Shown here in pieces: positions 1,039-30,137 of a DNA stretch of 64,000 nt; positions within the stretch are counted from its first letter, which is position 1, and every line of letters begins with the position of its first letter. Where the stretch lies: IMG/VR virus record IMGVR_UViG_3300028591_000011, positions 1 to 64,000 of that record. The stretch is one strand, 5' to 3'. Under the pieces are notes generated by a model. It made no database searches and was not told the DNA's origin. It saw only the letters and a list, made by a program, of their open reading frames with translations. Source of the stretch: a virus. Its lineage: Duplodnaviria > Caudoviricetes. Made by a program: the position numbers and the translations under genes.

Positions 1039-4000
1039 ATGAATACAATAGATAGAAAATATTTATTATTTTAGACGCAAACTGCGTTTGAGGAGGCTTT
1101 GCGTATGAATAATGTACGTAACGATGCTATAGTCTTTATCAAGGATCCTAAGCAAATCTATACTCATGGTACATATTGGGATTGTTAGGATTCTGGTAAG
1201 TAGGATAGCGATTTCTAGGCGTGGTTTAACAAATAGGATGTACCTACAAAGAAATGGGTGCAGGATTATGTCAAAGGATAGCTCGACAAAATTACTCCTA
1301 AGGCAGATGGTACTATAACATATACCGCTGGAGAAGGCATTGATATCACCGGCACTACGATTAAGTTGGCTAAAGCTACCGATTCGTCTAGAGGAGGATT
1401 TAAGACAGGGTACGTCAGAAATGGCAATAGTCTTCCAGTAAGCTTAAATGGACAAGAGAGAGCTTATGTATATATACCGGACGATTTGATTTCTGGAGGC
1501 GGTGGAGGTGGAAATAAGACTAGTAAATATTATGAAATAATATTTAAGACCACTAATACAGATACTCCTCCAGATCTCCCTACGTCCGATAATATGGACG
1601 GATGGAAACAGTATGCCGAAAATAGTGACGGAAGCAAAGTTGTATGGATGGCAATGGGTCTTGTATCAAACGGCACAGTATCTTCGTGGGAAGGTCCTTG
1701 GAGAATAAGTGGTCCAAATGGAGAAAATGGTGTAGATGGAGATAGAATAGAGTATATATACAAACTTACCAGAGAAGAAACAAGACCAGATACTCCAGGT
1801 GGTAACATTGCTGTACAAACAGACGATTACGTACCAAGCGGATGGAAAGATAATCCTTAGGGAATAAACGACAAATAGAAATACGAATGGATGTCGATGC
1901 GCTTTAAGACATTCTCTAAAGAAAATCCTAATGGAGAATGGAGCACGTTTATTTCGCCTGTATTGTGGTCTGCTTATGGCAGAAATGGTACTGATGGAGA
2001 CGGCGTTGAATATATATACTATACATCAAATAACATACCTGTATGGGATAGTACATCGGGTAATGATCCGTCTACTTGGTATAATGATGATTATTATTAG
2101 ACGAGACCTGAATATATAAGAACTGGTTAGGGTTCCTTAACTCCTTAGTTAAATAAGTGGTTAGATGATCCATACGGATTTGAAAACTCGGACGTAAGAC
2201 CTGGAGCTAGAATCTATGTAGCTATTCGTAAAAAGAAGATGGATTCTAGTACCAATACGATGAGGTGGCAAGCGTATAGTAAACCGAAACAGTGGTCATA
2301 TTATGCATTAAATGGAGATGCTGGTATTGGAGTTGTTGCAGATCTTGATAACGATACGATGTGTGTGTCGCTAAAAGAAGATGGAAACAATAATGCATTT
2401 ACTCAATCTTCTAAGGTTTACTTATATAATGGATAGAATACTATAAGTTGTTCTGCTCGTATAATAAGTGCTACATTTAGTGATGGAAGTGTGGCAGAAG
2501 GATGGTCGCAACTTATAAAAGTAGATCAAAATGTAGCAAATAAAATAAACGTAGCGATACCTGCAAACGCTTATAATTTTAAAAACAGGGGCACAATGTC
2601 TGTTGTTATTGAAGTTAAAGGCGTTATAAGCGGCGCAGAAGTTACTAGAGAGGCTGTATTAAATATACTTGGAGTAAACTTTGGTGTAGATGGGGTTTCT
2701 TATTCACTTGTAACTGGAGCAAAAGTTATACGAAAGAATAAAGCTGGTGTATTAGCCCCTAGTAGTATATCCGTACAGTGTACTGAAGTGGACGGTGCAA
2801 TGAATATGAAAACTTGGAATCCTGCCAATTCGCCGGAAGGGTTTAGTTTTTGGTATTTTTTAAACGACGACTATTCAGACGAACGTGAACTTTTTTCGAA
2901 TACTATCGAAACGTCTTGGGGAATAACTGACAGTGTAACAGTACGGCTGAAATATTATAAAGATGGCAATCTGTATACTGTTGATCAAGAAACCATATTT
3001 GTTGTTTCAGATGGTATAGATGGAGGTTGGATTCCAGCAGTATACTATGATATATAGGTACAGTCTACAACACTATCTAAAGTATATACTGGAGATTCTG
3101 CTAAACTATAGGGAAAACTTACGTGGAAAGTATTTAAAGTAGAAGGGAATACTAGAACTGAAATAACATCTGCAAACAAAACAGAAATGGGTGCAGATAT
3201 ATATATGAAATATGGTAATAATTCTACGCCTGCACAGTGGAGCAATTCTGAAAGTTACTGGTATACACAACTAAAAGCAACATGGAATGATAGTTATTCG
3301 TATTCACAAATCATATTGAAAATCGATGATGTTCCTACAGCATCTATAGTAGTACCTACTATAATGAACGGTAAGGACGGTAAAGATGCGGAGAATCTTC
3401 AAACTTTGAGTGGTGCTGTGATGCGTCTTACAGAATGGTAGGCAAATCCTGCGAATTCTTATAATGATGGAACTACTGCAGAAAAGGGAATATATTATCT
3501 TGACGTTGTACAATATGGCAACGAACTATTTAAATGTATAGAATCACATAAACCGCAAACAGCAAATGATCATCCGTTAAGTGAAGGGTTCAGTGGTAAA
3601 TGGTCTAAAATAAACGCCATGAGTGATGCTGCCTTTCATACATTACTTGCAAAAGACTCTTATATAGAAAACCTTACTGCTAAATAGATAGTAATAACTA
3701 AGAAATAGCAAACAATAGGAGGTGAAACTATAGACGTTCCTGTAGCCGGAATGGTTAATAGTGATTATGTCACACAAAAGCGTGTGGATGGTACTGATAA
3801 TATAAGCAGTGATTGTGGTGTGCGTATATTTGCTGGTACTATTCCCGCAACTGGCAATTTGGCTAGTACAGCATTTAATGTAGATGAAATGGGTAACGTT
3901 AAAGCTGGAGCAGGTTCTATTGTATTAAACGCCAACGGTAGTGGTTATGTCGCAGGTGGCAAGATCTCGTGGGATCAAAACGGTAATATTACTGCATTTG

Positions 4001-4488
4001 GAGTTAATCCGTTTATAGGAGGAAGTACACAGTTAGTAAATTAGGCATATAAGAATATGCTCTATATAACTAAAATTTTATTTACGATGTCTGAATCGCA
4101 ATAGAAATGGACAGTTTGCGGATTTATTATATCGAATGGATGGATAGTGGCCCCGTTTAATGTTACTTGTTCAAATAAATATCCTATAACTGTTTCTAAT
4201 TTAGAAAATTATACACTTAGCGCGCAATAGTTGTTTAATTCTTTATGTAGTGAAAATAGTCCATTCTATGATTGCGTTAGGAAGAGCGGATTAATATCTG
4301 TGAATGAGTCAGAATATATCTACGAAAATGGAGACAACATTTGGATAGAAATTCCTGATGGATGTTTCTACTTTAAACAACGGCATGCTGTCGAAGATCT
4401 TATTACCGGTAAACAATCCTATTATTATATGACTCACGAATGGAAGTCTGCTTCGTCTGGATTTGTACAGTGGCAAAATCCATCTTAA
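1039..4488 (+). CDS. Putative tail fibre protein (~1149 aa) with three tandem W-rich modules joined by GxxGxDG linkers
   Basis: Track ORFs 1366, 1891, 2239, 2491, 3187, 3751 and 4231 share one frame and are separated by TAG. Repeats: 'WEGPWRISGPNGENGVDGDRIEYIY', 'FISPVLWSAYGRNGTDGDGVEYIY', 'YSKPKQWSYYALNGDAG'. Ends TAA. Confidence 0.7.
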
Positions 4489-4499
4489 TCTTATAAACT

Positions 4500-6323
4500 A
4501 TGATAAATCGTAAATTTCTGTACTTTAAAACCTTAGCCGGTTTTGAAGCAGCCCTTATAGACAGGGGTGATGATCGTACAGGTATTCGTCAAGATTCTAT
4601 CGTATTTATCGGGCAAGAAAAACTTATCTGGAATCGTGGAGTATTCTACGGAAAAGATGAACATAAAGACGAAAGGAGCAAAGGTCTCTTTTAGTCAGAA
4701 GATCAATTATTACAAACCGTCCCTCTCCCCGTTAAAGGGGATTGGGCGTTTGTAAAAGTTGGAGAGAGGTATTATATATATCTTTGTGAAATAAACGGTG
4801 TATGGGTCAATTCTGGCGACTAGTATCACATGGGAATATCCGAAGAAGAATTAAGACGGATGTTCACATGGTATACTGAAGATTTTGATGATATCATTGA
4901 AGGCGTACAAAAAAGTATAGCTGACGTAGATACAAAATATGGAGATGAGATTGAAGATATTAGAAATATTCTAAAAGGCATCGGAAATTCACCAGAATTA
5001 CCATCAGGTATAATAACCGAAGAAAATATATCACAATACATCCCTCAGAATATAATTACCGAAGGCAATCTTTGGAATTATATAACAATTGATACTGAAT
5101 TGTCCGGAGATTCTGCAAATCCTGTATAGAATTCAGCTATATGGTGGGAACTGTAGAAAAAAGTAGATGCTCCAGAAGAAGGTAGTTTTGCTACGCAAAG
5201 TCAGTTCGAAGAATTATCTGAAGCCGTAGCAGGAAAAGCATTATTGTCCGATTTTCAAGATTTATAGTAGGACGTAACAGACTTATCTGGCGCCGTTAGT
5301 TTAAAGTACAATACAACTGACGCACAAGAAACGTATAGAGACATTCTTGATAGAATATCTAAAAAAGTAGATACTACTACATATCAAGCGCATTGCCAAT
5401 ATGCAGAAACTACATATGCTAAAAATGCAAACATAGAAGGTATGGTATAGCAGTATGTATCAAATATGGCATATCTTCTTGAAAGATCTAAAGGTTATTT
5501 TGATAGCGAATTAGAATTATCAGAAACTGTACCTTATCCTATTGTAGGCGATTGGGCAATTGTAAATATAAATGGCGAGTGGATAATATATAGATGTGCA
5601 GTAGAAGGAGAATGGCAATCTACAGGACAAATATATAGACCTATAGTAGACTTACGTAACTATGTAAAACAAGAAGCTTTAAGCGCATACTCTACAAAAG
5701 AAGATCTTAGACGACATGAAAATGATGCAAGAGGTACCTATCTTACACAAGACGACTTAGCTGACTATGCGTTAAAGACTGATATACCTAAAAATACTGG
5801 TATAGACGAAACAGTATTAAGAAATTATGTAACTAGAACAGATCATAATACACATGTTGCGTACGCAGAAGATACTTATGCAAAGAAATCTCAAGTAAAC
5901 GGATTTGTATCAAAAACCTACGTTGATGAAAAAGATGATACCATAATGGACGTCATAACAAAATTGTAGGCTAGTGTACGATACATATACAATACTTATG
6001 TAAAATGGTCTGAAGCTAATGGTTAGGATCCGCATCAAGACGATCCATACAATCCTATAGGCTATAATAGGATGGTTACATTGAGGGAAGAAGAATATCA
6101 AGGGTTAGTTGCTGCAAATGCGGTTGATGCTAATACCTATTATTTCACATACGAAGAGGACGTACCTGAAAATACTTCTTGGCACTTTGGAGATAAATTC
6201 CCCATCATACTTACAGATAATACAACCAATAATACAGATACATGGAAGTTCGGAGACGAATTCCCTATAACATTTTTAAACGATTGGGAATTTGGAAAAA
6301 CGTTCCCCATTAAATTGACATAA
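4500..6323 (+). CDS. Putative tail fibre/spike protein (~607 aa)
   Basis: ORFs 4500, 4830, 5466 and 6072 join through TAG. N-terminus is paralogous to the 1039 gene. Contains a duplicated 'RSKG.F.SE..L..TVP.P..GDWA.V' domain, the 'IDTELSGDSANPVQNSAI' fibre motif and C-terminal W.FG..FPI repeats. Confidence 0.7.
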
Positions 6324-7368: not shown

Positions 7369-7563
7369 ATGATACACATAAACAATCATGACATAACTGG
7401 TGTTTATAGTGGGCATAAAGATATTATAAAAGTATACAGCGGATTATACTTAGTTTGGAGTAAAGAAATAACAACAGATACCGTATTATCGTGTTATTAT
7501 AACGGATATTGGATTGATGAATATCCTTGGACAGATAATACACCTTGGAGAAAAACAGAATAA
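7369..7563 (+). CDS. Small hypothetical tail-associated protein (64 aa)
   Basis: Tightly packed ORF between its neighbours, with a W/Y-rich C-terminus. Confidence 0.6.
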   Translation: MIHINNHDITGVYSGHKDIIKVYSGLYLVWSKEITTDTVLSCYYNGYWIDEYPWTDNTPWRKTE

Positions 7564-7565
7564 TT

Positions 7566-10500
7566 ATGCCATTATACGAAGGATATATAAACGAATTTGT
7601 AGATTGGGTTGATGGACACGATACATCGGCGGATGAGATATCGCAAGTGTACAGAGCATCTTCTACAGGTGGATTACCTGTTTCTGGTAAGTACATACGA
7701 GAACTATTACAGACAAGATTGAAAAAACCTTTCGTATCATATGAAGATACAATAGCTGGTTTATACAGATTGTTTAGTAGTGAAGACATAAAGAACAAAT
7801 GGATCAGAATGAATACAGAAGGTAGTCCTGAATATGATCCAGAAAGTTCTAAGTCACTTGAATTGTTTAACTTTGTAAGACCAAGTGATGTTACGCTTAC
7901 ATTTAGCGGACTTGATCCAAATCCAAAATACATAATAAACGGTGATGAAAACTCAAGAAACGCATTACTTGAGTTTAATGTGTATTTGTCAAAAGAATCT
8001 GGCGGCGGAGTCGTATACGAAAGCGACTCCTTCACCGTCACCTATGAAGTTACAGATTCTAACGGTATAAAACATACACAGTCTGAAGAAAAAGATTCAA
8101 CTTTTTTAAATTCTACGAAAAAGGTAACTAAGAATATATATTCTATGTTATCAATAGGACAGAATATTGTAACTGTAACTATGAAAGCTAAAAATTCTAG
8201 CGCACAAAATTCAGTTACATTTGCAATGTTTTTAGTAGTATTTGAAATAGAAAGTTTATTCGACTATGCTGCTCACTGGGATCCGGAACGACCAATAGAT
8301 ATACCTATAAGTATACGCCGCAGTGATACTTCTCTTAGAATCAGAGTAGATATAACTGTAGACGGGTAGCCTGCTAAATTAGCTGTAGATTATAAAACTC
8401 CAGCTACATGGGAAATAGGCGCTGGAGAATCAAACCCTACTAGAACTATATCTATCGCGAATACATATAGTGCCAATGTTACATCTCAAGATAGAGAACA
8501 GCATGTTCTACAGATAGAAGCGCACATGTATGATCTAGATATGGGTGTTTCTTATCCTAGCAATGTATTATTATTTGACTTTATTGTGGCATCTAGTACT
8601 ATAGGTATTACAAATAAGTTTATAAATACTAAATGTTCGCTTCCTTATAGTAAAGTTTCTACAGATATAGACTCTACTGGACGAATATTCTTTTAGGCTG
8701 TTTAGTATCAGACATTTACGTTGCCTTGGGCTTATTATACAGACAGAGAAACAACATAGCAAACCATAAATGTAGAGTGGGCAACTAGGGTAGAGAATAA
8801 CGGTGTATATACGTACAATACTATAGCGACATTAGAAGGTCGTAATAAAATGCAAAGCGAACCGTTGCGTTTTATTCCAGATTTTTATACTACTGGAAAT
8901 GAGATTTGCCTTGTAGCGTTATATCAAGGAGAAGAAATAGAAGCTTTCCCTCTACAAGTAGAACAAAGTAATCTTTCTATAGTAGAAACTGGAGGTTATG
9001 ATCTTAAATTAACAGCCTTTGGTAAATCTAACCAATCCCCAAATAAAAACGAATGGGCTGACATATATAATAATGTAACTACAACATTTTCTGGAATTAT
9101 ATTTGATGATAATTCTGGATGGAACAAGAACAGTTTTGTTACTAGAGGAATTGACCAACATGCGATTATAAATTATAATCCTATTCCTGCAGATTACGAT
9201 ATTGGAGAATATGGAAAAACTATAGAGATAGATTTTAAAACAGAAAATATCGTAAACGAAAACGATGTTCTTATTACAATAGGAGACCCACAAAAGGGGC
9301 ATATTGATATAAGCACAAATAAAGCTGGATTGTATAATGGACAAAATGAGATAATTCGTACAAATTATAAACCTAACGAGCGTATAAAATTAGCATTTGT
9401 ATTTAATCCAGTTAGATCGGGAGTAGATAATTCTAACTTGATATTCATAATAAATAATGGAATATTAGAACGTGCTACTTCTTACGGAACAGCTTTAAGT
9501 TATTCGTCTGCAAACGGGTTCATAAAAATAGGTGGATCTTATAGCGGAATAAGAGTATATAACATAAGAGGTTACAATAAAGCGTTAAGTTATAGCGAAG
9601 AACTTAACAATTATATATACGATAGTGAAAATAAAGCTGAGATTATTAATAGAAATGATATCTTTACTAGTAGTGTAATTGATTATACGAAAGTAAAAAA
9701 TAAAATTGATACTATATTACTTACGGGCAATTTAAATAAGATATTGTCACAAGGCACAAGTAAAGATGATTCGGAATCTACAATTAATTTCAAAAGAGAG
9801 TGTATAACAGATCCCACTAAGTCGTTTGAAGTTATAAACGGCATGATAAGAAAGCATGGACAATCGACGCTTAGCTATCCTATAACCTCAATGAAACTTT
9901 GGACAAATAAAGCCAAAGAATCTAATGTTGTTACTAATATAAATCTTTCATAGACGCAGAAGGCGGAAGGTCTTAACAAGAACCGATATATAATGAAGAC
10001 TGGAGCTATTCCAGCTAATAAGTTTGTTCTACAAGCAAACTATGCAGACTCTTCTGGTACTCATAATGGATCTCTGCTCAGACTTATCCAAAAAACTTGG
10101 TACGACGCTCAAATAGATGGACACCATATACTTAGAACAGCTCCACAATTGTTTACTTCCGGTGAAGTTCTAACGCATAACGATTCTGATTTGCATGAGG
10201 ACGGTACTTGGGTAGAAGGTTATGGAGTAGGTGCTGCTGCAAATAAAACATGGCCACAGACAACTGGTAAGAATTTCCCGTATACAATTCGTGTTGCACC
10301 AGATTCATTCCCTTGTGCGGTATTCTATCAAAATGGCCCTAACGACGGATATCATTTCTTAGGTCAATACGTTTTCATGGATGACAAGAAATCAGACTAT
10401 ACCTACGGCGAACGCAGTATATACCATTTTGGAACTGATAACGATCCGTTCGTCCTTAAGACGGAAAACACAAAGAACGGACCTTTAGGTAGACAAGATA

Positions 10501-13500
10501 CAGACGAAAATAAAGTTTGGGACAATAAAGACGTATTGAGAATAGAAGTTGTTCTTCCCGACACCACGTTGACTAGCTATATGGATTTCGATGTAACCGA
10601 CAAAGACGGGAATGTTGTACCATGTACTACAATCAAAACAGACGCTGCTGGAAATCCAGATAAATATTATTGGGAAGATTATTTCGAAATGATATTTCCA
10701 GATGAAGACGATGTAGCGGAAGATGATGCAAAAGACGGTATAAATAAATTTAATCCAAATTCTAAATTTGTAAAAAAAGTACAACCGTTTATAAACTTCC
10801 TAAAATGGATTACTGATTGCAAAAAGAATTATGCAAATGCTACATAGTGGTGGTCTGCTGGTACATATAGTTCTACACAACAAGCATTTGAAGCTACCGC
10901 TGCACAACATCTTGATTTATATAAAATAGCTGCATATTATATATTCTTCTTACGTTTTGGACTTGTAGACTCTGTAGAACGTAATGCTTAGTTAAAGACG
11001 TATGATGGTCAACACTGGCATTATGAACCTTGGGATATGGATATCGCATGTGGAGAAACTAACCAAGGTGCTCTGATATTAAATCCACCTTTAAATAGAG
11101 AAAGTGTAGAACCAGGTACTACTACATATGCATATTCTGGTAAAAAATTAAATAGTACCAGTAACACATTATTTGACTGTCTTGAAAATTGGGATTATTG
11201 GGCTAATACACTAGTTCCAAATGTAGCACAAGCTCTATATGATGCAGGTCTTGATTACGACTCTATAATGGAAATGTTCGATGGACAATATGCAGATGCG
11301 TGGTGTGAAGCGATGTATAATGAATCTGGAAATTTCAAATATATACAAAACGGAGGTGGAGATTGGTTAAAATGGTTACACGGATCTAGAACGTCTCATA
11401 GACATTGGTGGATTAGTACATCTATGAATTATTATGACGCCAAGTGGTCTTGTGGTGCATTTAATTCTCACCGAGTTAGAATATTTACGGATAAAAAACG
11501 CAATTCAGATTTAAACGATCCTGACATTATTACTATAAAGCCGACATCTGACACATTTATCAAAATAGCTAACCTTGAAGGTTAGGGTCTCGTCGACATG
11601 CACCAAGTTATAAAGAACGATTCTGAAAGTTGGAAGTTCGATGTATCGAATGCAGTATTTTCTACAAAGGACCCGGCTTATATATACGGCGGTACGTTTA
11701 TTGAGGAGATAGACTTGAGTTCTATATCAGAAAAACTAAAAGCGGCAGACTTTGCGTTGTGTTACGATAACATATTAGGTGCCCCCATAAAAAAAGTTAA
11801 CGTGGGCCTACCATATACAGAAATATCTTCTACACAATACCAAGGTAAAGTATCCGGTACTCAAATGAGATTAGAAGGATACGATCCTATAGCAAAAACA
11901 GACGCTTTTGAGAATCTGTAGATACTCGATATTACAGGACAAGCAAGTATTACGACCACTTCAGAATTACTTGGATCTACAGATAGAAGAAATGTTACGG
12001 ACGTATATGCAATAGGTAGCGGTATTACAGAATTTATAAGTTCTTAGTCTGGTAATAAATTTAATACAATTAAATTGCCAGCCGTAACAACAGTTACATA
12101 TACTGGTCAAAATCCTACTACAACCATATTTAACACATTGTCTATGACAAATAGTTCTTGGTAGAATATAGAATTTTGGAATACAAATAGATCTGGCGAT
12201 ATAGTATATATGAGAGACGAGAATGATGAACTTATTCTCGACGACGAAGATAAACCTATCGCAGAACCATCTGTTGCTACGTTTACAAAAACTGCAATAC
12301 CTTATCAGTTACATACTGTGCAATTTAAGGGAAGTACAGCATCGAATGAATGTGCTGGTCAATTTATATTAGATTGGATAGAATCTATAGATAATAGTTT
12401 GCCAGTAGGTCATACAGAAGAAGATTTGTATGAAGCACTTTCGTCCAAAAGTTTTTAGGCTGAGAATATAAATTGGGGGTTGAGCAATCAAAGTATACAG
12501 TTTACATATCAAGATGTTGCTAGGATTGCACACATGAATAATGGTAATAATTCTGGCGGATTAATTAAAGGTTATATAGTATTGTCTGATGACCATGACC
12601 TCACAGCTGAACAAGTCAACAATCTTGCATAGTGGTTTGGTCAATCTGTATTTACTAAGAGTTCTAAGAATAGTGGTCTTGTGATAGATCATATGCGGCC
12701 ATATGTATAGATTACTTCATATGGTACAAGTGTTGTAGATAACGAACTTATATTAAATGAAGGTAGTTCTACGTCTTTGATTGCTACTAGATTTACTTTA
12801 TCTGAAGATAGTTCTGATGAATTTAGTTGGTCTGTAACTACCGGACAAAACATTCAAAGTTCTGGTAAAAATAGAGAAAAATCTGTATATCTCTAGGCCG
12901 GAGATGATGGGATGATGTATTTAGTTGCAGAGGGTGATGGAACATATGGGGATTATTATGTTACAGTAACTGCTTCTAGTGGAAATGTCACATCAATGCT
13001 TACTATAAAGATAATAGGAGCTATACTTCCTGATCATATAGAAATCGCATTAAGAACAGTATCTGGAGATCCCGCAAGAAGATTTTCTTTATCGCAGCAA
13101 TTAATATCTGCTATGCCTACCGTATTTAATAATTACGCGTATGATGCTCATAATAATAATGCAATAAGGGATACTTATTTACTATTTTCTTCTGGACAAC
13201 AAGTAGAATTTTATGCTAGAGCTATAAACGGGCCAGTTCCTTCGACAATACCGATAAATTCCATACGATATTCTATATCTACAATATTACCTACTCTTAC
13301 AACTTATTAGTAGTTAACCGGATACGAAAATGTTGTTTCAAATAGAATAGGTGACGGAATTCTTCATTATGTAAAGTGCGCAGAAAATAGAGGTATTGTA
13401 GTTGGTGTTACGTCGGCGCCTTCGTCTTTATCTATATATGAATTAAAAGCATATGTTACTGTTGGAGCAATGGTGTATGCAAAGACGATAAACATAATAG

Positions 13501-14129
13501 CTTATGACGATAGCTCGGTAATCCATTAGGAAAGTACATCTCGACCTGTATAGAATGTGTTGAATTCTTTGTACTATTAGATATACGGAACTGATAAAGA
13601 TAAATATTATAAATCTGATTTGTTATAGTTAGTTGGTGGATTGGATTTTTCTCAAGAAACAAATATCGAATATCTTAACACAGAGACGAATGAAAATTTG
13701 TTGCAGTATTTACCTAATATTACATCTTTAAATTTTGAAGGTTGTACGCATCTTAGTATGAGTACTCTTGGAACATTTAATTAGACGCAAGACACGTTGT
13801 TGTTTACACAAATGGACAAGTTATAGAGTATAAATATGGATGGTGTCGCTACTGGCAATATAGTAATAGATTTATCTAACCTACAGTCGTTAACTTCCAT
13901 AAATTTAGAAAATACTAGAGCTGGTATAATATTACCTCCGCAATCTGCTGTATCTTCAATACAGTTAGGATCTCCGACTAAGGTATCTATTACCAATCCT
14001 ACTCAACTTGGAGACGATGGAACTACATTTACAATTTAGGATTCGTAGTATCTGGATGACATATCTTTAATTAACTGTAACACTACAACTGTTCATGGAT
14101 TTACAATGTTCAATACTTTATACGAATAA
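7566..14129 (+). CDS. Large multidomain tail-associated protein (~2187 aa): LamG/ConA-like domain, CotH-kinase-like domain, C-terminal LRRs
   Basis: Eight same-frame track ORFs joined through TAG. LamG-like 'KTIEIDFKT...IRVYNIRGYNKALS'. CotH-like 'HGQSTLSYPITSMKL', 'VLQANYADSS', 'DSVERN', 'PWDMDIACG'. LRR 'LPNITSLNFEGC', 'LSNLQSLTSINLENT'. Ends TAA 14127-14129. Confidence 0.75.
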
Positions 14130-14135
14130 TACACT

Positions 14136-15833
14136 ATGCATTTAGAAATTAAACAAAATATAAACAAAACGGAGATCGTAGATCCATCAGTAATAAGCAA
14201 ATTATACGAGTTGTCTTATGAGGATTAGTAGAACGGAACTGTTAGTTAGTTAGATTCTACAAGCGATGTACAAGGACGCATAGAGACTGTTGCTGCAGAT
14301 GAAGACGAAGTAAGATACCTCGCAGGCATAGATCCTGGTGATGTTAAACGGTTTTAGAATCTTTATATAACAGTTCCAAATAATAGCTATTATATAAATA
14401 TCGAAGATCCCGCCACGAAAGCTATTTGTGTTGCTTTGTGGGGTGGTGCTGATGGTGGTACTGCTGCCGCTAGCAGTCGTGTCAACAATACAAAGATACC
14501 AGGTGCTGCTGGGGAACTGACTTATGCACAGGCGGCAAGCATCAAGTATTTTCCTAGTAATGCTTTTACGAATAATACAAGCATTATAGACGCGAGCGTT
14601 TTTCAGTATTTTACTAATCTGACAAATTTTAGTGAAAACGCTTTTTTGAACTGCTCATCGTTGAAGAATCTCACAATTCCAGCTAATTTTACTGCGTTTT
14701 AGAATAATTCGTTTTATGGGTGTAGCTTACTGACCAGGGTTGATGCACTGAAGGATTTGGAAGGGTGGATGAGAATCACTACACAAAACATATACTCGAC
14801 ACCATTAACGAGACCAGTGTCTTTATATTTGAACGGTGTCGAACTAGCTGGTGAAGTTGTTATCCCTAATAGTATTACAGATATAAAAAGCTGTACTTTT
14901 TGGAACTTGCGTGCAATTACTAGTGTTGTATTTCATAACGGTATTACAAGTATTGGAGGTTATGCGTTTGCAGGAACCAGTATAGCAGGAAATCTAACTT
15001 TACCTCAGTAGCTTATTATTTTAGGTGAAAGATCTTTTTATGGTTGTACAAATATAACGAGAGTAACTATACAAAACGGGTTGAGTATTATAGGAAAGGA
15101 TGCGTTTCGTGATTGTACCTCGTTAACAAGAATAGACATACCGGCAAGTGTTATAACTATTGGCTCAGGAGCCTTCGCGAAGAACGGTGACAGTTATGAT
15201 ATATATTACAGTGGTACTTTATAGTAGTGGATGAATATTGATAAATAGTATCATATTGATGTGGGTGGTCCTTTTAATAACAACATCTTGTACATCCAAG
15301 ATGTTGTTATTACTGACGTGGTAGTACCTGCTGGTACAACTATTATAAAATAGTATGCTCTTACTAATAGTGTCAATATAACAAGTATAACGCTTCCAGA
15401 TAGTCTTCTGAGTATTGGACTAGGTGCTTTTCGTAATACAAGAATTACAAGCATTACAATACCAAACAGCGTTACGTCAATTGGTGCAGATGCGTTTCGT
15501 GATTGTATTAATCTTAGATCAATCGTTATGCCAGATTCATTAACAGAAATTTAGAGTTATGCGTTCGCAGGATGTATTACTTTGACTTCTGTGACCATAC
15601 CAAACTCGGTGACAAGCATTGGCAACTATGTTTTCTCGTAGTGCAGTAATCTTGAAACTGTAATTGTGGAAGCTGTTACACCTCCCACTTTAGGAAATAA
15701 TGTGTTTTATTACAATAAATCAAACAGAATCATATATGTTCCTGACGCAAGTGTAGATGTGTATAAATCAGCAAATGGGTGGAGTAGTTATAAAAATTAT
15801 ATAAAAGGTATTTCAGAATTGCCACAATCTTAA
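14136..15833 (+). CDS. BspA-type leucine-rich repeat (LRR_5) protein (~565 aa)
   Basis: Repeats such as 'ITIPNSVTSIGADAFRDC' and 'VTIPNSVTSIGNYVFSQC', with a C-cap 'TPPTLG...IYVPDASVDVYKSANGW'. Read through TAG. Confidence 0.85.
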
Positions 15834-19615: not shown

Positions 19616-21664
19616 ATGGTAGACTTTAATAAAAAAATATACAATTCTTCAAAATTTTGTAAGCCTGCTGAGTTCTTCAAAGAACATGGATGCTATACTT
19701 TAGCACCCAGAGGCACTACAGATTATAATAACTATTGGGATAGAGAGACAGATAGATGTCTTAACGGATATGTTGCAGAAGATGGAGATGCTATTACTGG
19801 CTACCATTATTTCTATTTAAACTATTGTCCTATCATGAAATTGGTAGAAGAAGAATATACGGATAGATATGGGCAAAAACGCCTAAAGAGAAATCGTGTA
19901 TTTGAATTCCCTAATTTCTGGGACGGTGACTATTACTATTTCAATGCGATAGAAGAGGCTGAGAATGAAGGTAAACATATGGCAGTCCTTAAGTGTAGAC
20001 AAAGAGGTTACTCTTTTAAGGGGGCTAGTATGTTAGTTAGAAACTACGAACTCATCCCAGGGTCTAAGAACTTTGCGGTAGCTTCAGAACAGAAATTCCT
20101 AGTTGGTGACGGAATTCTTACAAAAGCTTGGCAAATAATGGACTTCGTTGACAAGAATACAGACTGGTCAAAACAACGACTTACTGCTACTCGTATGGAG
20201 CGTGTATCTGGATTCAAAGTTAAAGATGAGTTTGGTAAAGAAACTGAACAAGGCTATTTATCTTCCATCACAGGTATTACACTGAAGAATGACCCAGAAC
20301 GCCTTCGTGGTACTCGTGGTAAGCTTGTACTATTTGAGGAAGGTGGTAAGTTCCCGGGTCTTGAAACAGCGTGGCAAATCGAACGTCCTGCTGTAGAAAC
20401 TGACGACGGTGTAGCTTTTGGTTTACTTATAGCATTTGGTACAGGTGGTACTGAAGGTGCGGCGTTCGATGGACTAAAAAATATGTTCTATCACCCGGAC
20501 GCATTTAATGTACTTGGATTCCCTAACATATGGGATGACAATGCAAGTAATACTAAATGTGGATTCTTCTCTCCATCTTACTGGAATCTAGAGAGTAAAG
20601 ACGGATCTTGTATAGATCCAGATGGTAATAGTAAGAAAGATGTCGCTATTGAAAGATTAATAGCTGAAAGAAACAAAGTACGTGACGGCGGAGCTTCGTA
20701 GGAAGCTATAGATAGATTCATATCAGAACGTCCCATGAAGCCTGCAGAAGCGTGCTTGGAATTAGGAAAAAATATATTTCCTAAAAAGCTTTTGATGGAC
20801 CAACTAACTAGAATAAGAACAAACGAAAAGCTTAAAAACATGAAGCATGTGGTTGACTTATTTTGGGATGGAAATGGTATGGTAAAAGCTACAGAAAAGA
20901 AATCTGGCGATATAACAGAATATAAACCTGATAAACGAGATGACAAACCAAGAGGATCAGTAGTTATCTGGGAATACCCAATCCCAGATGCCCCATTCGG
21001 ATTATACATTGGCGGTTGCGACCCATATGATCATGACGAGTCGTTCACTAACTCGTTAGGATCGACGTTTATTTTTAAAAGAGTTAGAGCAGGAGAAGCT
21101 TGGAACGACGTAATCGTAGCCGAATATACGGGAAGACCAGACACAGCCGAAGAGTATTATGAGAATGTACGTAAACTGTTAACATTCTATAATGCTAGGC
21201 TGCTGTTTGAGAATGAACGTAAAGGTATATATCCGTACTTTACAAACAAACACTGTGACTACTTGCTTGCGGATCAGCCAGATAAGATAATTACAGAGAT
21301 ATTTAAAGATAGTCGTGTACAGCGTAGAAAAGGCTGCCATATGACAAAACAAATAAGAGCCTACGGAGAGGGTCTGATATTAGAATGGCTAATGGAAGAA
21401 TATGAGCCTGGGCACTTAAATATAGAAAGGATATACAGTGAACCGTTGCTTGAAGAACTTATAGAAACAGATGGTGTAAAAAACGTAGACCGTGTGATAG
21501 CTCTATGTATGGTAATGATATATAGAGAAGAGTTATATCAAGTAAAGGTGTCAGCTGCAAAAGAAGAAAATAAACAGGTTGAACTCTTCGAGCTACCTTT
21601 GTTCAGTAGACAATGGTTTGCTGATACGTAGCCACAAGACGACATACCGTTATTTAGTTTTTAA
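19616..21664 (+). CDS. terL: Terminase large subunit (682 aa)
   Basis: Walker A-like 'LKCRQRGYS', Walker B 'VLFEEGG', nuclease 'GCDPYD' and 'DRVIAL'. ORFs 19616 and 20735 join at TAG 20699-20701. Confidence 0.92.
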
Positions 21665-22205: not shown

Positions 22206-24689
22206 ATGGTTAAAATAGAAGATAATTTATATAATTCGAACTTCCCGCAACAGAAGCTGCCGCTTAAAAAGAAGACAGAGCAGTGGCAACATGATTGTGT
22301 GGATTATATCATAGGAGAAGGAAATGTAGTATCCGGTGGTATGAGTAAGACTAGGTTCGGAGAGATACAAACCTATTATAACCTTTATAATTCAATATTC
22401 GATGAGAAAGATTTTAAACGTATCACAAACCCGTTTAAAGTCGAAGATGGATTTCCAGCAACACCTCAAGATTTCAATATAATAAGGCCTAAGGTAGACC
22501 TCCTTATAGGTGAAGAGACAAAGAGGCCGATGAACTTCAGAGTAGTTAGGACATCCTAGGAAGCTGCTTCAGAACTCATGGATAAAGAAAAAGAGATGCT
22601 TATGTAGTACATGATGGCTGCAGTAACATCTAAAATGGGAGAAGAAGAAGCTGCTCAATTTTAGCAATAGTTGTAGTCTGGGGAGATAATGCCTCCAGAA
22701 GGTATTGCTAAATACATGCAGAAGGATTATAAAGACGTTATAGAGAATACAGCATATCATACACTTACATATCTTAGAGAAAAGTTAAACTTAGATAATG
22801 AGTTTATTAAAGGTTGGAAAGACGCTCTTATATCTGGTACAGAGATATATTATGTGGGTGTACTCAACGACGAACCTTATTTGGAGAGAGTAAATCCAGT
22901 CTTCTTTTCTTACGATCAATCTCCAGATTTAGAGTTTATAGAAGATGCTTCATGGTGCTGTAGAAGAATGAGGTTACCGGTAGCAGAAGTATACGATAGG
23001 TATTACAACAAGCTCAGTGAAAAAGATTTAAACAAGCTTCAAGAAATGCTAACTGGTAGACCTTCTAACGATATGGGTGACAAAGATAAGACGGATAACT
23101 TTGGTATACAAATGCATATTTATGACAACCCCATATTCGATCAGAAGACTCGTCATAATATAAATGTATGGCATTGCTGCTGGAAATCATTTAAAAAGAT
23201 ATACTACGTTACGTATTTGGATGAATCCGGTACTCCTCAAATAGATATAGTAGACGAATCTTATAAAAAGAATGGTACAGAGGTAGACGTCACTCCTGAC
23301 TGGATTGTAGAAGTATGGGAAGGCTATAGAGCGGGTTCTGACTTATACTTCGGCATACAGCCTATTGAGTATCAGCATGTTTCAATTGATAATCCCAATT
23401 CTCAAAAGCTTCCATATACAGGAGCAATTTATAGCAACACTAATAGCAAACCAAGATCCCTTGTTAGTATACTCAAACCTCTTCAATATATGTATATTGT
23501 GCTTTGGTATAGGCTTGAACTCGCTATTGCGAGAGATAAGGGAAAGGTAGTGAACATGGATATTACTTAGATACCTAAGTCCATGAATATAACTCCAGAT
23601 CGTTGGATGCATTATTTGTCTAGTGTTGGTGTAAACTTTATTAATCCGTATGAAGAAGGTTGGAATGTTCCTGGACGAGAGGGAGGCAAACCTGCTACAT
23701 TCAATTAGATTACGTCGTTAGATTTGACTATGTCTAATGTAATCGCTGAATATATTCAGTTGATGGACAAGATAGAACAGCTCGCAGGAACTATATCTGG
23801 TATTACAGAACAGCGTGAAGGTGCTATTAGTTCTAACGAACTTGTAGGAAACGTAGAGAGGTCAGTAGTACAGTCTTCACATATCACAGAACCTTTGTTC
23901 TGGGTGCATAATCAATGTAAGCGCCACGCCCTTAATATGCTGCTAGATACAGCCAAAGGTGCATGGTCTTAGACAGGCAAAAAGAAGTTAAGTTATGTCT
24001 TCGATAATGGAGAACGTGCATATCTCGATATTGCAGATAAATTCTATTACGAGGATATGGACGTGTTTGTGAGCGACACTTCTAAAGACATGGAGAATAT
24101 ACAAAAACTACAACAGCTTATTCAACCAGCTATGTAGAATGGAGCCAGCCTCTTAGAAGCAGCTGAAGTACTTACAAACGATAACTTCAATATTATTAAG
24201 CAGAAGCTTCAAGAGATGTAGCAACGTCAGGAAGATCAGATACGTCAGCAACAGCAGGCAGAACAAGAGCAGGCTGTGCAACTGCAACAGATGCAGAATG
24301 AACAGCGACAGCAAGAGCTCATGCTTGAAGAAGCCAAGATGGAGCTTGAACGTTATAAGATTGATGCTGATAACCAGACCAAGATTGCAGTAGCTGAAAT
24401 TAGTGCATATCGTGGTACAGAAGAGAAAGATGCTAATAACAACGGCATACCCGATCCTATGGAGATAGCTAAGGATGCTACACAATAGCGTAAGATTGCA
24501 TCTGACGAGTATACTAAGCGTTATGAAGCACGTCAAAAGAGAGAGATAGAAGATCAGAAGATTCAGCTTGAAGAGAAGCGTATGAAGCACGAGATGGAGC
24601 TACAAAAGCAGAAGGATAAAGCTGCTGAAGAAAGAGAACGCATCAAGGCTAGAGCTGCTATCAGGAATAAAGTAAGCGGGGAGAAGTAA
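22206..24689 (+). CDS. Portal protein (827 aa)
   Basis: crAss-type N-terminus 'FPQQKLPLKKKTEQW', 'NIIRPKVDLLIGEE', 'EVWEGYR', Q-rich C-terminal coiled coil. Follows terL. About 11 in-frame TAGs. Confidence 0.88.
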
Positions 24690-28610: not shown

Positions 28611-30137
28611 ATGAATAATACTTTACTTAATAATCTCCAGCTGTATCGCGGACGTCGTTTCAGCGACCTGGTAGATGAGAACATGATTTCTAATGCGCTG
28701 CTGACCAAGCCCCATGAGGTATCTGGTCTGCTTTCACTGGTATTTGGTACAAAAGATGATGGTATTTCTACCACGATCGACCTGCTTACTGGTGGTCTTG
28801 GCAAGACGATGATTATTGAAAATAGGGAATTTGAATGGGCTGTACAGATTGATAGTGATCATGCTATCAACATTCGTTGGGCTAAGTGGAATGGTCAGGA
28901 AGTAAATGCCACTACTATTGCTGCCGGTATTACTCCTGGTCTGAACAACACTCCCATTTATCTCGCTCTTGAAGAGCGCTGGTTTGGTCCTGGTGCTGTT
29001 CTTTCTTTTGATGACTATAAATTCCAGGTTCGTGTAACTGGTCTGCCCTATCAGGATGGTAGCGCTTGGGTTTATGAGTGCTATGTCGTTGATGGTTCTC
29101 AGGCTGCTTATATTCCTGGTGAGTTGCTGATGCCTGGCCGTCAGGTTAGCCGTATCGGTTCTGCTTACGAGGAGTACAGCGATGAGGCTGATATCATCAA
29201 CTATCAGACTCCGTTTAAGATGCGCAACCACCTCCAGAATCTGCGTCTGAGCTACGATATCACGGGTGATGCTTACAGCACCGTTCTTGCTATCGCTCTG
29301 AAGGATCCTGAGACTGGTAAGTCATCTTATCTGTGGGCTGATTATCAGTATTGGAAGGCTCTTCGTGAGTGGAAGAAGAGAGAGGAGACCGCTCTCCTGT
29401 TCTCTAAGAGCAATCGCCTTGCTGATGGTACGTATATCAATAAGGGTACAAACGGACGTCCTGTTCCCACGATGAGCGGTCTGCTTGAGCAGATTTCTCC
29501 TGCAAACATCCGTTACTACACAACTCTTACAGCTGAGTTGTTCGAGGATTATCTGTTTGATCTGTGCTACAATATTCTGGGTACCAACGAGCGCAAGTTT
29601 GTTGCTCTGACTGGTGAGATGGGTATTCGTGAGTTTGATCGTATCCTGAAGGAGAAGGTTGCTAGCTTCCATCTTTGTGATAACGTATTCGTTACCGGTA
29701 GCGGTCAGAACCTGACTCTCGGTGGTCAGTTCACTACTTATAAGATGACCAACGGTATCGAGCTGTCTCTGAAGCGTTGTCCGATGTTTGATAATATGGA
29801 GCTGTTCCGTCAGCTGCATCCGCTGACCGGTAAACCCCTTATGTCTTACACGTTCCTGTTTGTTGATATTTCGAACAGTGATGGTCAGTCTAATATCGTA
29901 AAGGTTTGCCGTAAGGGACGTGAGTTCGTTCAGTGGTATACTGGTGGTTCTGTTGCTCCTAACGGATATGCTAACAGCATCAATACACTGCGTTCTAACA
30001 GCCGTGATGGTTACCAGGTACACTTCCTCGGTGAGGTTGGTATTATGGTTCGTAACCCGCTGTCTTGTGGTATCCTGTACTGTGATGCTGAGGACTCAGA
30101 GCTGTCTAACAACGGTTTCCTGTCAGTAGGCGCCTAA
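28611..30137 (+). CDS. Major capsid protein (508 aa)
   Basis: Size, position and strongly biased codons. crAss-type motifs 'EFEWAV', 'FVALTGEMGIREF', 'DGYQVHFLGEVGIMVRNP'. No TAG. Confidence 0.88.
   Translation: MNNTLLNNLQLYRGRRFSDLVDENMISNALLTKPHEVSGLLSLVFGTKDDGISTTIDLLTGGLGKTMIIENREFEWAVQIDSDHAINIRWAKWNGQEVNATTIAAGITPGLNNTPIYLALEERWFGPGAVLSFDDYKFQVRVTGLPYQDGSAWVYECYVVDGSQAAYIPGELLMPGRQVSRIGSAYEEYSDEADIINYQTPFKMRNHLQNLRLSYDITGDAYSTVLAIALKDPETGKSSYLWADYQYWKALREWKKREETALLFSKSNRLADGTYINKGTNGRPVPTMSGLLEQISPANIRYYTTLTAELFEDYLFDLCYNILGTNERKFVALTGEMGIREFDRILKEKVASFHLCDNVFVTGSGQNLTLGGQFTTYKMTNGIELSLKRCPMFDNMELFRQLHPLTGKPLMSYTFLFVDISNSDGQSNIVKVCRKGREFVQWYTGGSVAPNGYANSINTLRSNSRDGYQVHFLGEVGIMVRNPLSCGILYCDAEDSELSNNGFLSVGA

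Follow-up and report, generated by a model that had tools for sequence, protein, structure and literature searches.

What might a protein kinase be doing inside a giant fibre-type protein of a gut phage? The question is raised by a single gene in a 64-kb stretch of DNA (the window), the first part of a virus record that is complete at 105,735 bp and carries direct terminal repeats (IMG/VR record IMGVR_UViG_3300028591_000011). A first-pass annotation, made from the sequence letters, had placed a CotH-type atypical protein kinase domain in the product of this gene, between a LamG-like lectin domain and leucine-rich repeats (LRRs), and had remarked that no role is known for a kinase displayed on a virion. 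That remark is still fair. Our analysis confirms the predicted kinase fold and finds its Asp/Asn/Asp centre intact. We favour, with a probability of roughly 0.55, the reading that the gene encodes a giant fibre- or adhesin-type virion protein with a working CotH-type kinase, most likely acting during assembly.

A CotH-type domain in a recoded giant gene

The gene and its domains lie in the window as follows (aa, amino acids).

7566-14129, plus strand: giant gene of 2,188 aa, ATG start at 7566, 25 in-frame TAG codons read as Gln
7566-8939, plus strand: N-terminal region, fold without assignment, no Pfam or NCBIfam match
8952-9665, plus strand: LamG / concanavalin-A-like lectin domain, aa 470-707, by transitive homology
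9732-11444, plus strand: CotH-type atypical protein-kinase-like domain, aa 730-1300
11739-12350, plus strand: first LRR region, internalin-like, aa ~1399-1602, by family profile against PDB with hmmalign mapping
13413-14123, plus strand: C-terminal BspA-type LRR region, aa ~1957-2193, by the same profile comparison and mapping

The fold assignment draws on sequence profiles and on structure prediction. The excised domain (aa 730-1300) scores 31 bits (E 2.5e-7) against the Pfam CotH family (PF08757), above the curated cut-off of 23.8 bits, in a partial match to positions 156-221 of the 322-position hidden Markov model (HMM); a six-frame search of the genome recovers the same match at 26 bits. 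An AlphaFold model built from 44 diverse relatives reached a predicted local distance difference test (pLDDT) score of 92.6 and a predicted template modelling (pTM) score of 0.93. A first model, built from 25 close homologues, reached a pLDDT of 55 and was discarded. The structural comparison with CotH that the first-pass annotation had proposed was run with Foldseek against PDB: Bacillus cereus CotH came first (5JDA, E 3.5e-8; 5JD9, E 6.5e-8) and no other match fell below E 0.1. The weak matches were mostly other atypical kinases (HipA, PI3K, CtkA and Fam20), and the nearest other folds include PI4K. Collectively, these results confirm, at the level of a predicted structure, the CotH-type kinase fold claimed for the central domain, and all five motifs quoted in support of that claim are present, at nucleotides 9849-11054. 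Compared with shorter relatives on bacterial contigs, the phage domain is seen to be ~210 residues longer than Bacillus CotH through insertions.

The domain is visible to Pfam only when excised: a scan of the whole 2,194-aa protein returns no match. NCBIfam likewise gives no match to the protein, the PHROG families that match it have no known function, and a megablast of the gene against phage records returned no match. Read with translation table 11, the region breaks into fragments, whereas table 15 gives a single frame at 7545-14129, open from a TTG at 7545. We take the ATG at 7566 as the true start because the consensus start of the homologues, METYxGxINEFVDW, corresponds to MPLYEGYINEFVDW at that position. 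Read-through of TAG is supported by a tRNA elsewhere in the genome.

genome 102812-102886: tRNA with anticodon CTA, suppressor-type, labelled tRNA-Pyl by ARAGORN

The converse possibility, that the TAG codons are true stops separating several small genes, was rejected on the evidence of this suppressor tRNA, the continuous homologues and the confident fold that spans TAG sites. Two bases past the CTA tRNA lies a second tRNA, called as Tyr with an unusual ATA anticodon; the pair spans genome 102812-102975.

Along the protein, an N-terminus of no assigned fold is followed by the LamG-like lectin domain, the CotH-type domain, LRRs, an Ig-like middle region and BspA-type LRRs. The order LamG, CotH, LRR given by the first-pass annotation was thus right, and both flanking assignments were borne out. 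The LamG-like region (aa 470-707) has no direct Pfam match in the phage protein itself; it shares 31% identity (E 3e-20) with a relative from Bacteroides sp. KFT8, in a segment that includes a Pfam Laminin_G_3 match (E 2e-7), and it also aligns with a protein of Hankyphage. The LRR regions were recovered by comparing the family profile with LRR proteins in PDB (E 3e-4 to 3e-3), the C-terminal region through 4gt6 (E 2.8e-4), 4fdw (E 8.3e-4) and 4fs7 (E 1.1e-3) and the first region through 4fmz (E 0.0029), with 4r58 at E 0.0048. For the first ~300 aa, tblastn of catalogued phage records finds relatives only in the Buhlduvirus genomes cr272_1 and cr273_1. Mean conservation is highest in the CotH domain, at 0.70 against 0.35-0.50 in its flanks, and lowest in the C-terminal LRR region (0.35-0.47).

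Catalytic and nucleotide-binding residues

Conservation of the fold raises the question of whether its active site is intact. The positions concerned, with numbering in the excised domain where useful, are these.

10968-10985, plus strand: catalytic loop D1142-S-V-E-R-N1147 (domain D413..N418), counterpart of CotH D228-x4-N233
11031-11042, plus strand: metal-binding W-D1164-M-D1166 (domain D435 and D437), counterpart of CotH PWD251YD253 and of the protein kinase DFG Asp
9849-9902, plus strand: N-lobe motif RKHGQSTLSYPITSMKLW, counterpart of CotH R-G-x-S-(S/T)...KK-x-Y-x-I/V, from hhalign, 5JD9 context and column counts
10386-10388, plus strand: Lys948 (domain K219), invariant in 66/66, 44/44 and 18/18 relatives, Val at the aligned CotH position
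10545-10547, plus strand: Glu1001, invariant in every relative examined

D413, N418, D435 and D437 show no variation, either among 66 diverse phage relatives or among 17 relatives on bacterial contigs; the D1142..N1147 pair of the loop is likewise unchanged in 66/66 and 18/18 relatives, and the residue at Asp+4 (domain 417) is always Arg or Lys. The equivalence of these residues to those of CotH is based on motif, spacing, Pfam segment and secondary-structure position. The 5JD9 sequence carries NFDGFVHN and PWDYD, with the relevant residues at SEQRES positions 224/229 and 247/249, to which an offset of four was added to give D228, N233, D251 and D253. The Asp-to-Asn spacing is the same as in CotH, and the Asp-to-Asp distance is 22 residues against 23 in 5JD9. 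The catalytic loop falls inside the segment matched by Pfam. Correspondingly, the model places the loop after a helix (396-409) and before two short strands, with the metal-binding motif after the strands, an order that reproduces the αE / catalytic loop / β7-β8 / DFG succession of protein kinases. In CotH, the substitutions D228Q and D251A are catalytically dead (PMC7821199). The D..N loop and the PWDxD motif had thus been correctly identified from the letters, and, judged from the alignments and the model, the Asp/Asn/Asp centre of the CotH-type domain is intact and strictly conserved.

The N-lobe gives a less canonical picture. Its Gly772 is invariant, and Ser774 is found in 65 of 66 family sequences, with Thr in the remaining one. 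The Lys-Lys (KK) dyad of canonical CotH is replaced by Ile-Thr in the phage protein, and the dyad position is variable across the crassvirus clade. The Lys of SMKLW, which the first-pass annotation had proposed as the ATP-binding residue, did not hold up: the position is Lys, Arg or His in 44, 15 and 7 of the 66 family sequences, Arg in one canonical Firmicute CotH and His in the solved CotH structure 5JD9. In hhalign of the family against one canonical CotH, only the N-lobe motif aligned, and a canonical Firmicute CotH itself reaches 5JD9 only at E 0.22, a match used just to read the context of the motif. Because the dyad is replaced and the SMKLW Lys is variable, nucleotide binding may differ from that of CotH or be lost. 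The invariant Lys948 and Glu1001 would be family-specific candidates for a replacement nucleotide or phosphate contact, a proposal that is inference only.

Proposed role of the domain and rival explanations

The gene belongs to a run of large genes on one strand and lies upstream of the following.

19616-21664: large terminase
22206-24689: portal
28611-30137: major capsid protein

This position, the LamG and LRR domain types and homology to a tail-module protein of Hankyphage together suggest a virion or tail location. In the reading that we favour, the protein would be built into the virion as a tail appendage, its variable LRR end would serve host binding, and its CotH-type domain would be a working Mg/Mn-dependent phosphotransferase rather than a mere scaffold. 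The kinase may phosphorylate itself or partner fibre proteins during assembly. ATP is plentiful only inside the cell; since it is abundant only in the cytoplasm, action at the time of assembly is favoured, and action on the host surface after release appears less likely. A precedent for a structural substrate is offered by CotH, which patterns the spore coat by phosphorylating CotB and CotG (PMC7821199).

Several observations weigh against this proposal. A tblastn search brought up no homology to the tail-fibre proteins of ΦcrAss001, and no relative of the N-terminus has been characterised. The proteins of the window include no evident Ser-rich, CotB/CotG-like substrate. On the side of the fold, phmmer and three profile searches of PDB sequences never reach CotH, and the Pfam match is confined to the one segment given above; on the side of chemistry, the KK dyad is replaced by Ile-Thr and the SMKLW Lys is variable. 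Moreover, the fold is not intrinsically part of a virion, since apparently ordinary chromosomal genes in Chryseobacterium (described below) encode it.

The loss of the dyad and the variability of the proposed Lys feature most directly in an alternative in which the CotH fold transfers no phosphate and is retained by an adhesin as a rigid spacer or ligand-binding module. The ~210 residues of insertions would fit such a module, as would the scarcity of ATP for a virion outside the cell and the company of LamG and LRR domains, both of them binding modules. CotH proteins of Mucorales act as receptors (PMC9973265), and fungal CotH invasins bind host GRP78. We consider this explanation doubtful because strict invariance of the Asp/Asn/Asp residues, together with a basic residue at Asp+4, across lineages of only ~22-30% identity is hard to explain without catalysis or metal/phosphate binding, and because no other region of the protein is as well conserved as this domain.

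If the domain is catalytic, it might instead act as a phosphotransferase on the host envelope, modifying, either in the periplasm or as the phage adsorbs, a surface protein, lipid, lipopolysaccharide sugar or capsule, in analogy to depolymerases. This view is consistent with a receptor-binding-type protein in which the kinase is joined to LRRs and to a LamG module of carbohydrate-binding type, and with the presence of lipid and small-molecule kinases (PI4K, PI3K, HipA and CtkA) among the nearest other folds. Secretory-pathway kinases of the Fam20 family, which are related to CotH, include a sugar kinase. Such an activity would need ATP outside the cell, where no source is evident, and the data give no indication of a glycan substrate; we therefore judge it unlikely. 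Least probable of all is a non-virion intracellular or secreted effector kinase encoded beside structural genes by chance, for although the gene lies upstream of the terminase and outside the portal-to-tail-barrel block, and the N-terminus lacks a known fibre anchor, the 2,188-aa size, the LamG/LRR/Ig-type modules, the position among large same-strand genes that is conserved in relatives, and a Hankyphage homologue that follows a minor tail protein and is the target of a diversity-generating retroelement (DGR), a role typical of receptor-binding proteins (PMC5758913; bioRxiv 10.1101/2024.11.15.621889), all speak for a structural protein.

All three explanations thus rank below a kinase that acts at assembly. 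We put forward tentatively, as less likely than not, the broader possibility that crassviruses and many other gut phages carry an active tail-fibre kinase that phosphorylates fibre components or the host surface during assembly or adsorption; in the present clade it would rely on a re-wired nucleotide pocket in which the invariant Lys948 and Glu1001 stand in for the KK dyad of CotH.

The phage, its relatives and known systems

The window reads as long same-strand genes once TAG is taken as a sense codon, and its layout is crAss-like; besides the genes already listed, it encodes a 1,302-aa virion structural protein and a giant protein of 5,524 aa. The nearest classified phages are cr272_1 (Buhlduvirus porcinus) and cr273_1, both from pig faeces (Crassvirales; Suoliviridae; Oafivirinae), so the phage is a TAG-recoded crassvirus close to Buhlduvirus (Suoliviridae). 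Directly downstream of the giant gene lies a second LRR gene.

14136-15833, plus strand: BspA-type LRR gene of 565 aa, Pfam LRR_5 (E 1.9e-94) over almost the entire length

Its product is probably a partner fibre or adhesin component, and in cr272_1 an equivalent gene likewise follows gp54, the orthologue of the giant protein. Further upstream, two adjacent large genes at 1039-4488 and 4500-6323 (1,149 and 607 aa) have no Pfam or PHROG match. They have a common N-terminal motif, RKYLLFQT..FEEAL...IVFI... in the first and RKFLYFKT..FEAAL...IVFI... in the second, which suggests, from sequence similarity, that they may be paralogous fibre proteins whose shared N-terminus serves as an anchor. The motif is absent from the CotH protein.

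We also searched for a phosphatase that might accompany the kinase. No metallophosphoesterase-type partner was found genome-wide (no PF00149 match at E <= 1), although a very remote homologue could escape such a search; the four upstream genes have no Pfam match, and none of six neighbouring products carries a calcineurin-type motif. Because no partner was found in the genome, the kinase would appear not to depend on one.

The family to which the domain belongs is large: 336 clusters were counted at 90% identity and 623 at 50%. Most members are 2,000-2,700 aa long, carry the domain at residues ~700-1300 and lie on ~100-kb contigs; the short matches are fragments produced by standard-code calling of recoded genes. 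A tblastn search of catalogued phages recovers both Buhlduvirus genomes together with 28 Hankyphage-like Bacteroides phages and unclassified gut phage contigs. The orthologue gp54 of cr272_1 (2,178 aa) shares 62% identity over the domain and 42% over the N-terminus, lies among the same neighbours, likewise upstream of the terminase, and is annotated only as a hypothetical protein. More distantly, the 'spore coat protein-like' protein of crAss-like cr124_1 and the 'internalin-like' protein of cr52_1 have the same fold (Foldseek E 5e-7 and 9e-16) at 12-15% identity. Other predicted viral structures with this fold bear the names "Spore coat protein H kinase fold" and "CotH kinase protein", and Bacillus phage G gp353 has the fold too.

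On the bacterial side, one fragment of the family lies on a 102,805-bp contig binned as 'MAG: Prevotella sp.', and many relatives are binned as Bacteroidales, Muribaculaceae or the Prevotella group, which hints weakly at the hosts that this phage group can infect. In Chryseobacterium, a 1,607-aa protein that combines CotH and BspA-type LRR domains has the same expanded domain and catalytic motifs and occurs in at least 12 genomes. On the chromosome of Chryseobacterium sp. KCF3-3 (L094:12370-17193), its upstream neighbours are isocitrate lyase, malate synthase and the EngA GTPase, with no phage genes among them, so that a cellular, non-phage clade of the CotH/LRR protein type seems to exist. 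A 2,279-aa CotH/LRR gene on the chromosome of Segatella copri HDE04 (L095:8060-11224) has genes for a reverse transcriptase, a SLATT_5 protein and a TIR-domain protein beside it on the opposite strand, a neighbourhood more suggestive of a defence island than of a DGR cassette.

No phages are more abundant in the human and animal gut than Crassvirales, whose host recognition is poorly understood. Hundreds of phage lineages, and also the globally common Hankyphage, have a strictly conserved kinase-type active site at the centre of a giant fibre-type protein; this suggests an unrecognised role for phosphorylation in the assembly of phage particles or in host recognition. If a tail-fibre kinase is indeed active, it would represent a class of enzyme activity carried by virions that is separate from depolymerases and lysins. 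The protein type itself has been described and is widely distributed. DGR targets of category f1 were reported as proteins of ~2,000 aa with CotH and Laminin_G_3 motifs that are probably phage-borne (Wu et al. 2018, PMC5758913), phage CotH-family kinase domains were noted to be occasionally fused to a hypervariable C-type lectin and to be "currently unstudied" (Benler et al. 2021, PMC8008677), and the Hankyphage-type protein has been designated 'domain group 3' (bioRxiv 10.1101/2024.11.15.621889). The locus is a newly resolved crassvirus member of this known type and does not alone make the question of kinase role newly testable. It adds a clean non-DGR crassvirus example with no phosphatase partner, the finding that the N-lobe Lys singled out initially is not the conserved one, and Lys948/Glu1001 as an alternative candidate pair.

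Set against Bacillus CotH (PF08757; 5JD9/5JDA), the phage domain has only 10-13% identity and measures ~570 aa against ~360 aa, with three large insertions. Bacillus CotH is a free 42-kDa spore protein, whereas the phage domain is embedded in a 2,188-aa LamG/LRR protein, lacks the KK dyad and has the family-specific invariant Lys948/Glu1001 pair.

Another of the closest known systems is that of Hankyphage p00. Hankyphage is a temperate phage of ~43 kb and the present one a TAG-recoded crassvirus of 105.7 kb. In Hankyphage the gene comes after that of a minor tail protein, and its 3' end is a C-type-lectin DGR variable repeat, followed by the template repeat and the reverse transcriptase; the crassvirus protein ends instead in BspA-type LRRs. 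No RVT_1 match for a reverse transcriptase was found in the complete 105.7-kb genome at E <= 1, and, given this and the LRR C-terminus, the crassvirus protein is a non-diversified relative rather than a DGR target. The BLASTP alignment to the Hankyphage protein is collinear in two stretches, aa 299-948 and aa 1088-1406 (E 1e-24 and 3e-20, ~24% identity); it starts ahead of the LamG-like domain and extends as far as the first LRRs. The DGR variable protein of Hankyphage (BK010646.1 31489-38226, 2,245 aa, DGR category f1) has the same size and the same LamG, CotH, LRR order as the crassvirus protein, and the catalytic motifs are intact in both, each from a phage of gut Bacteroidota.

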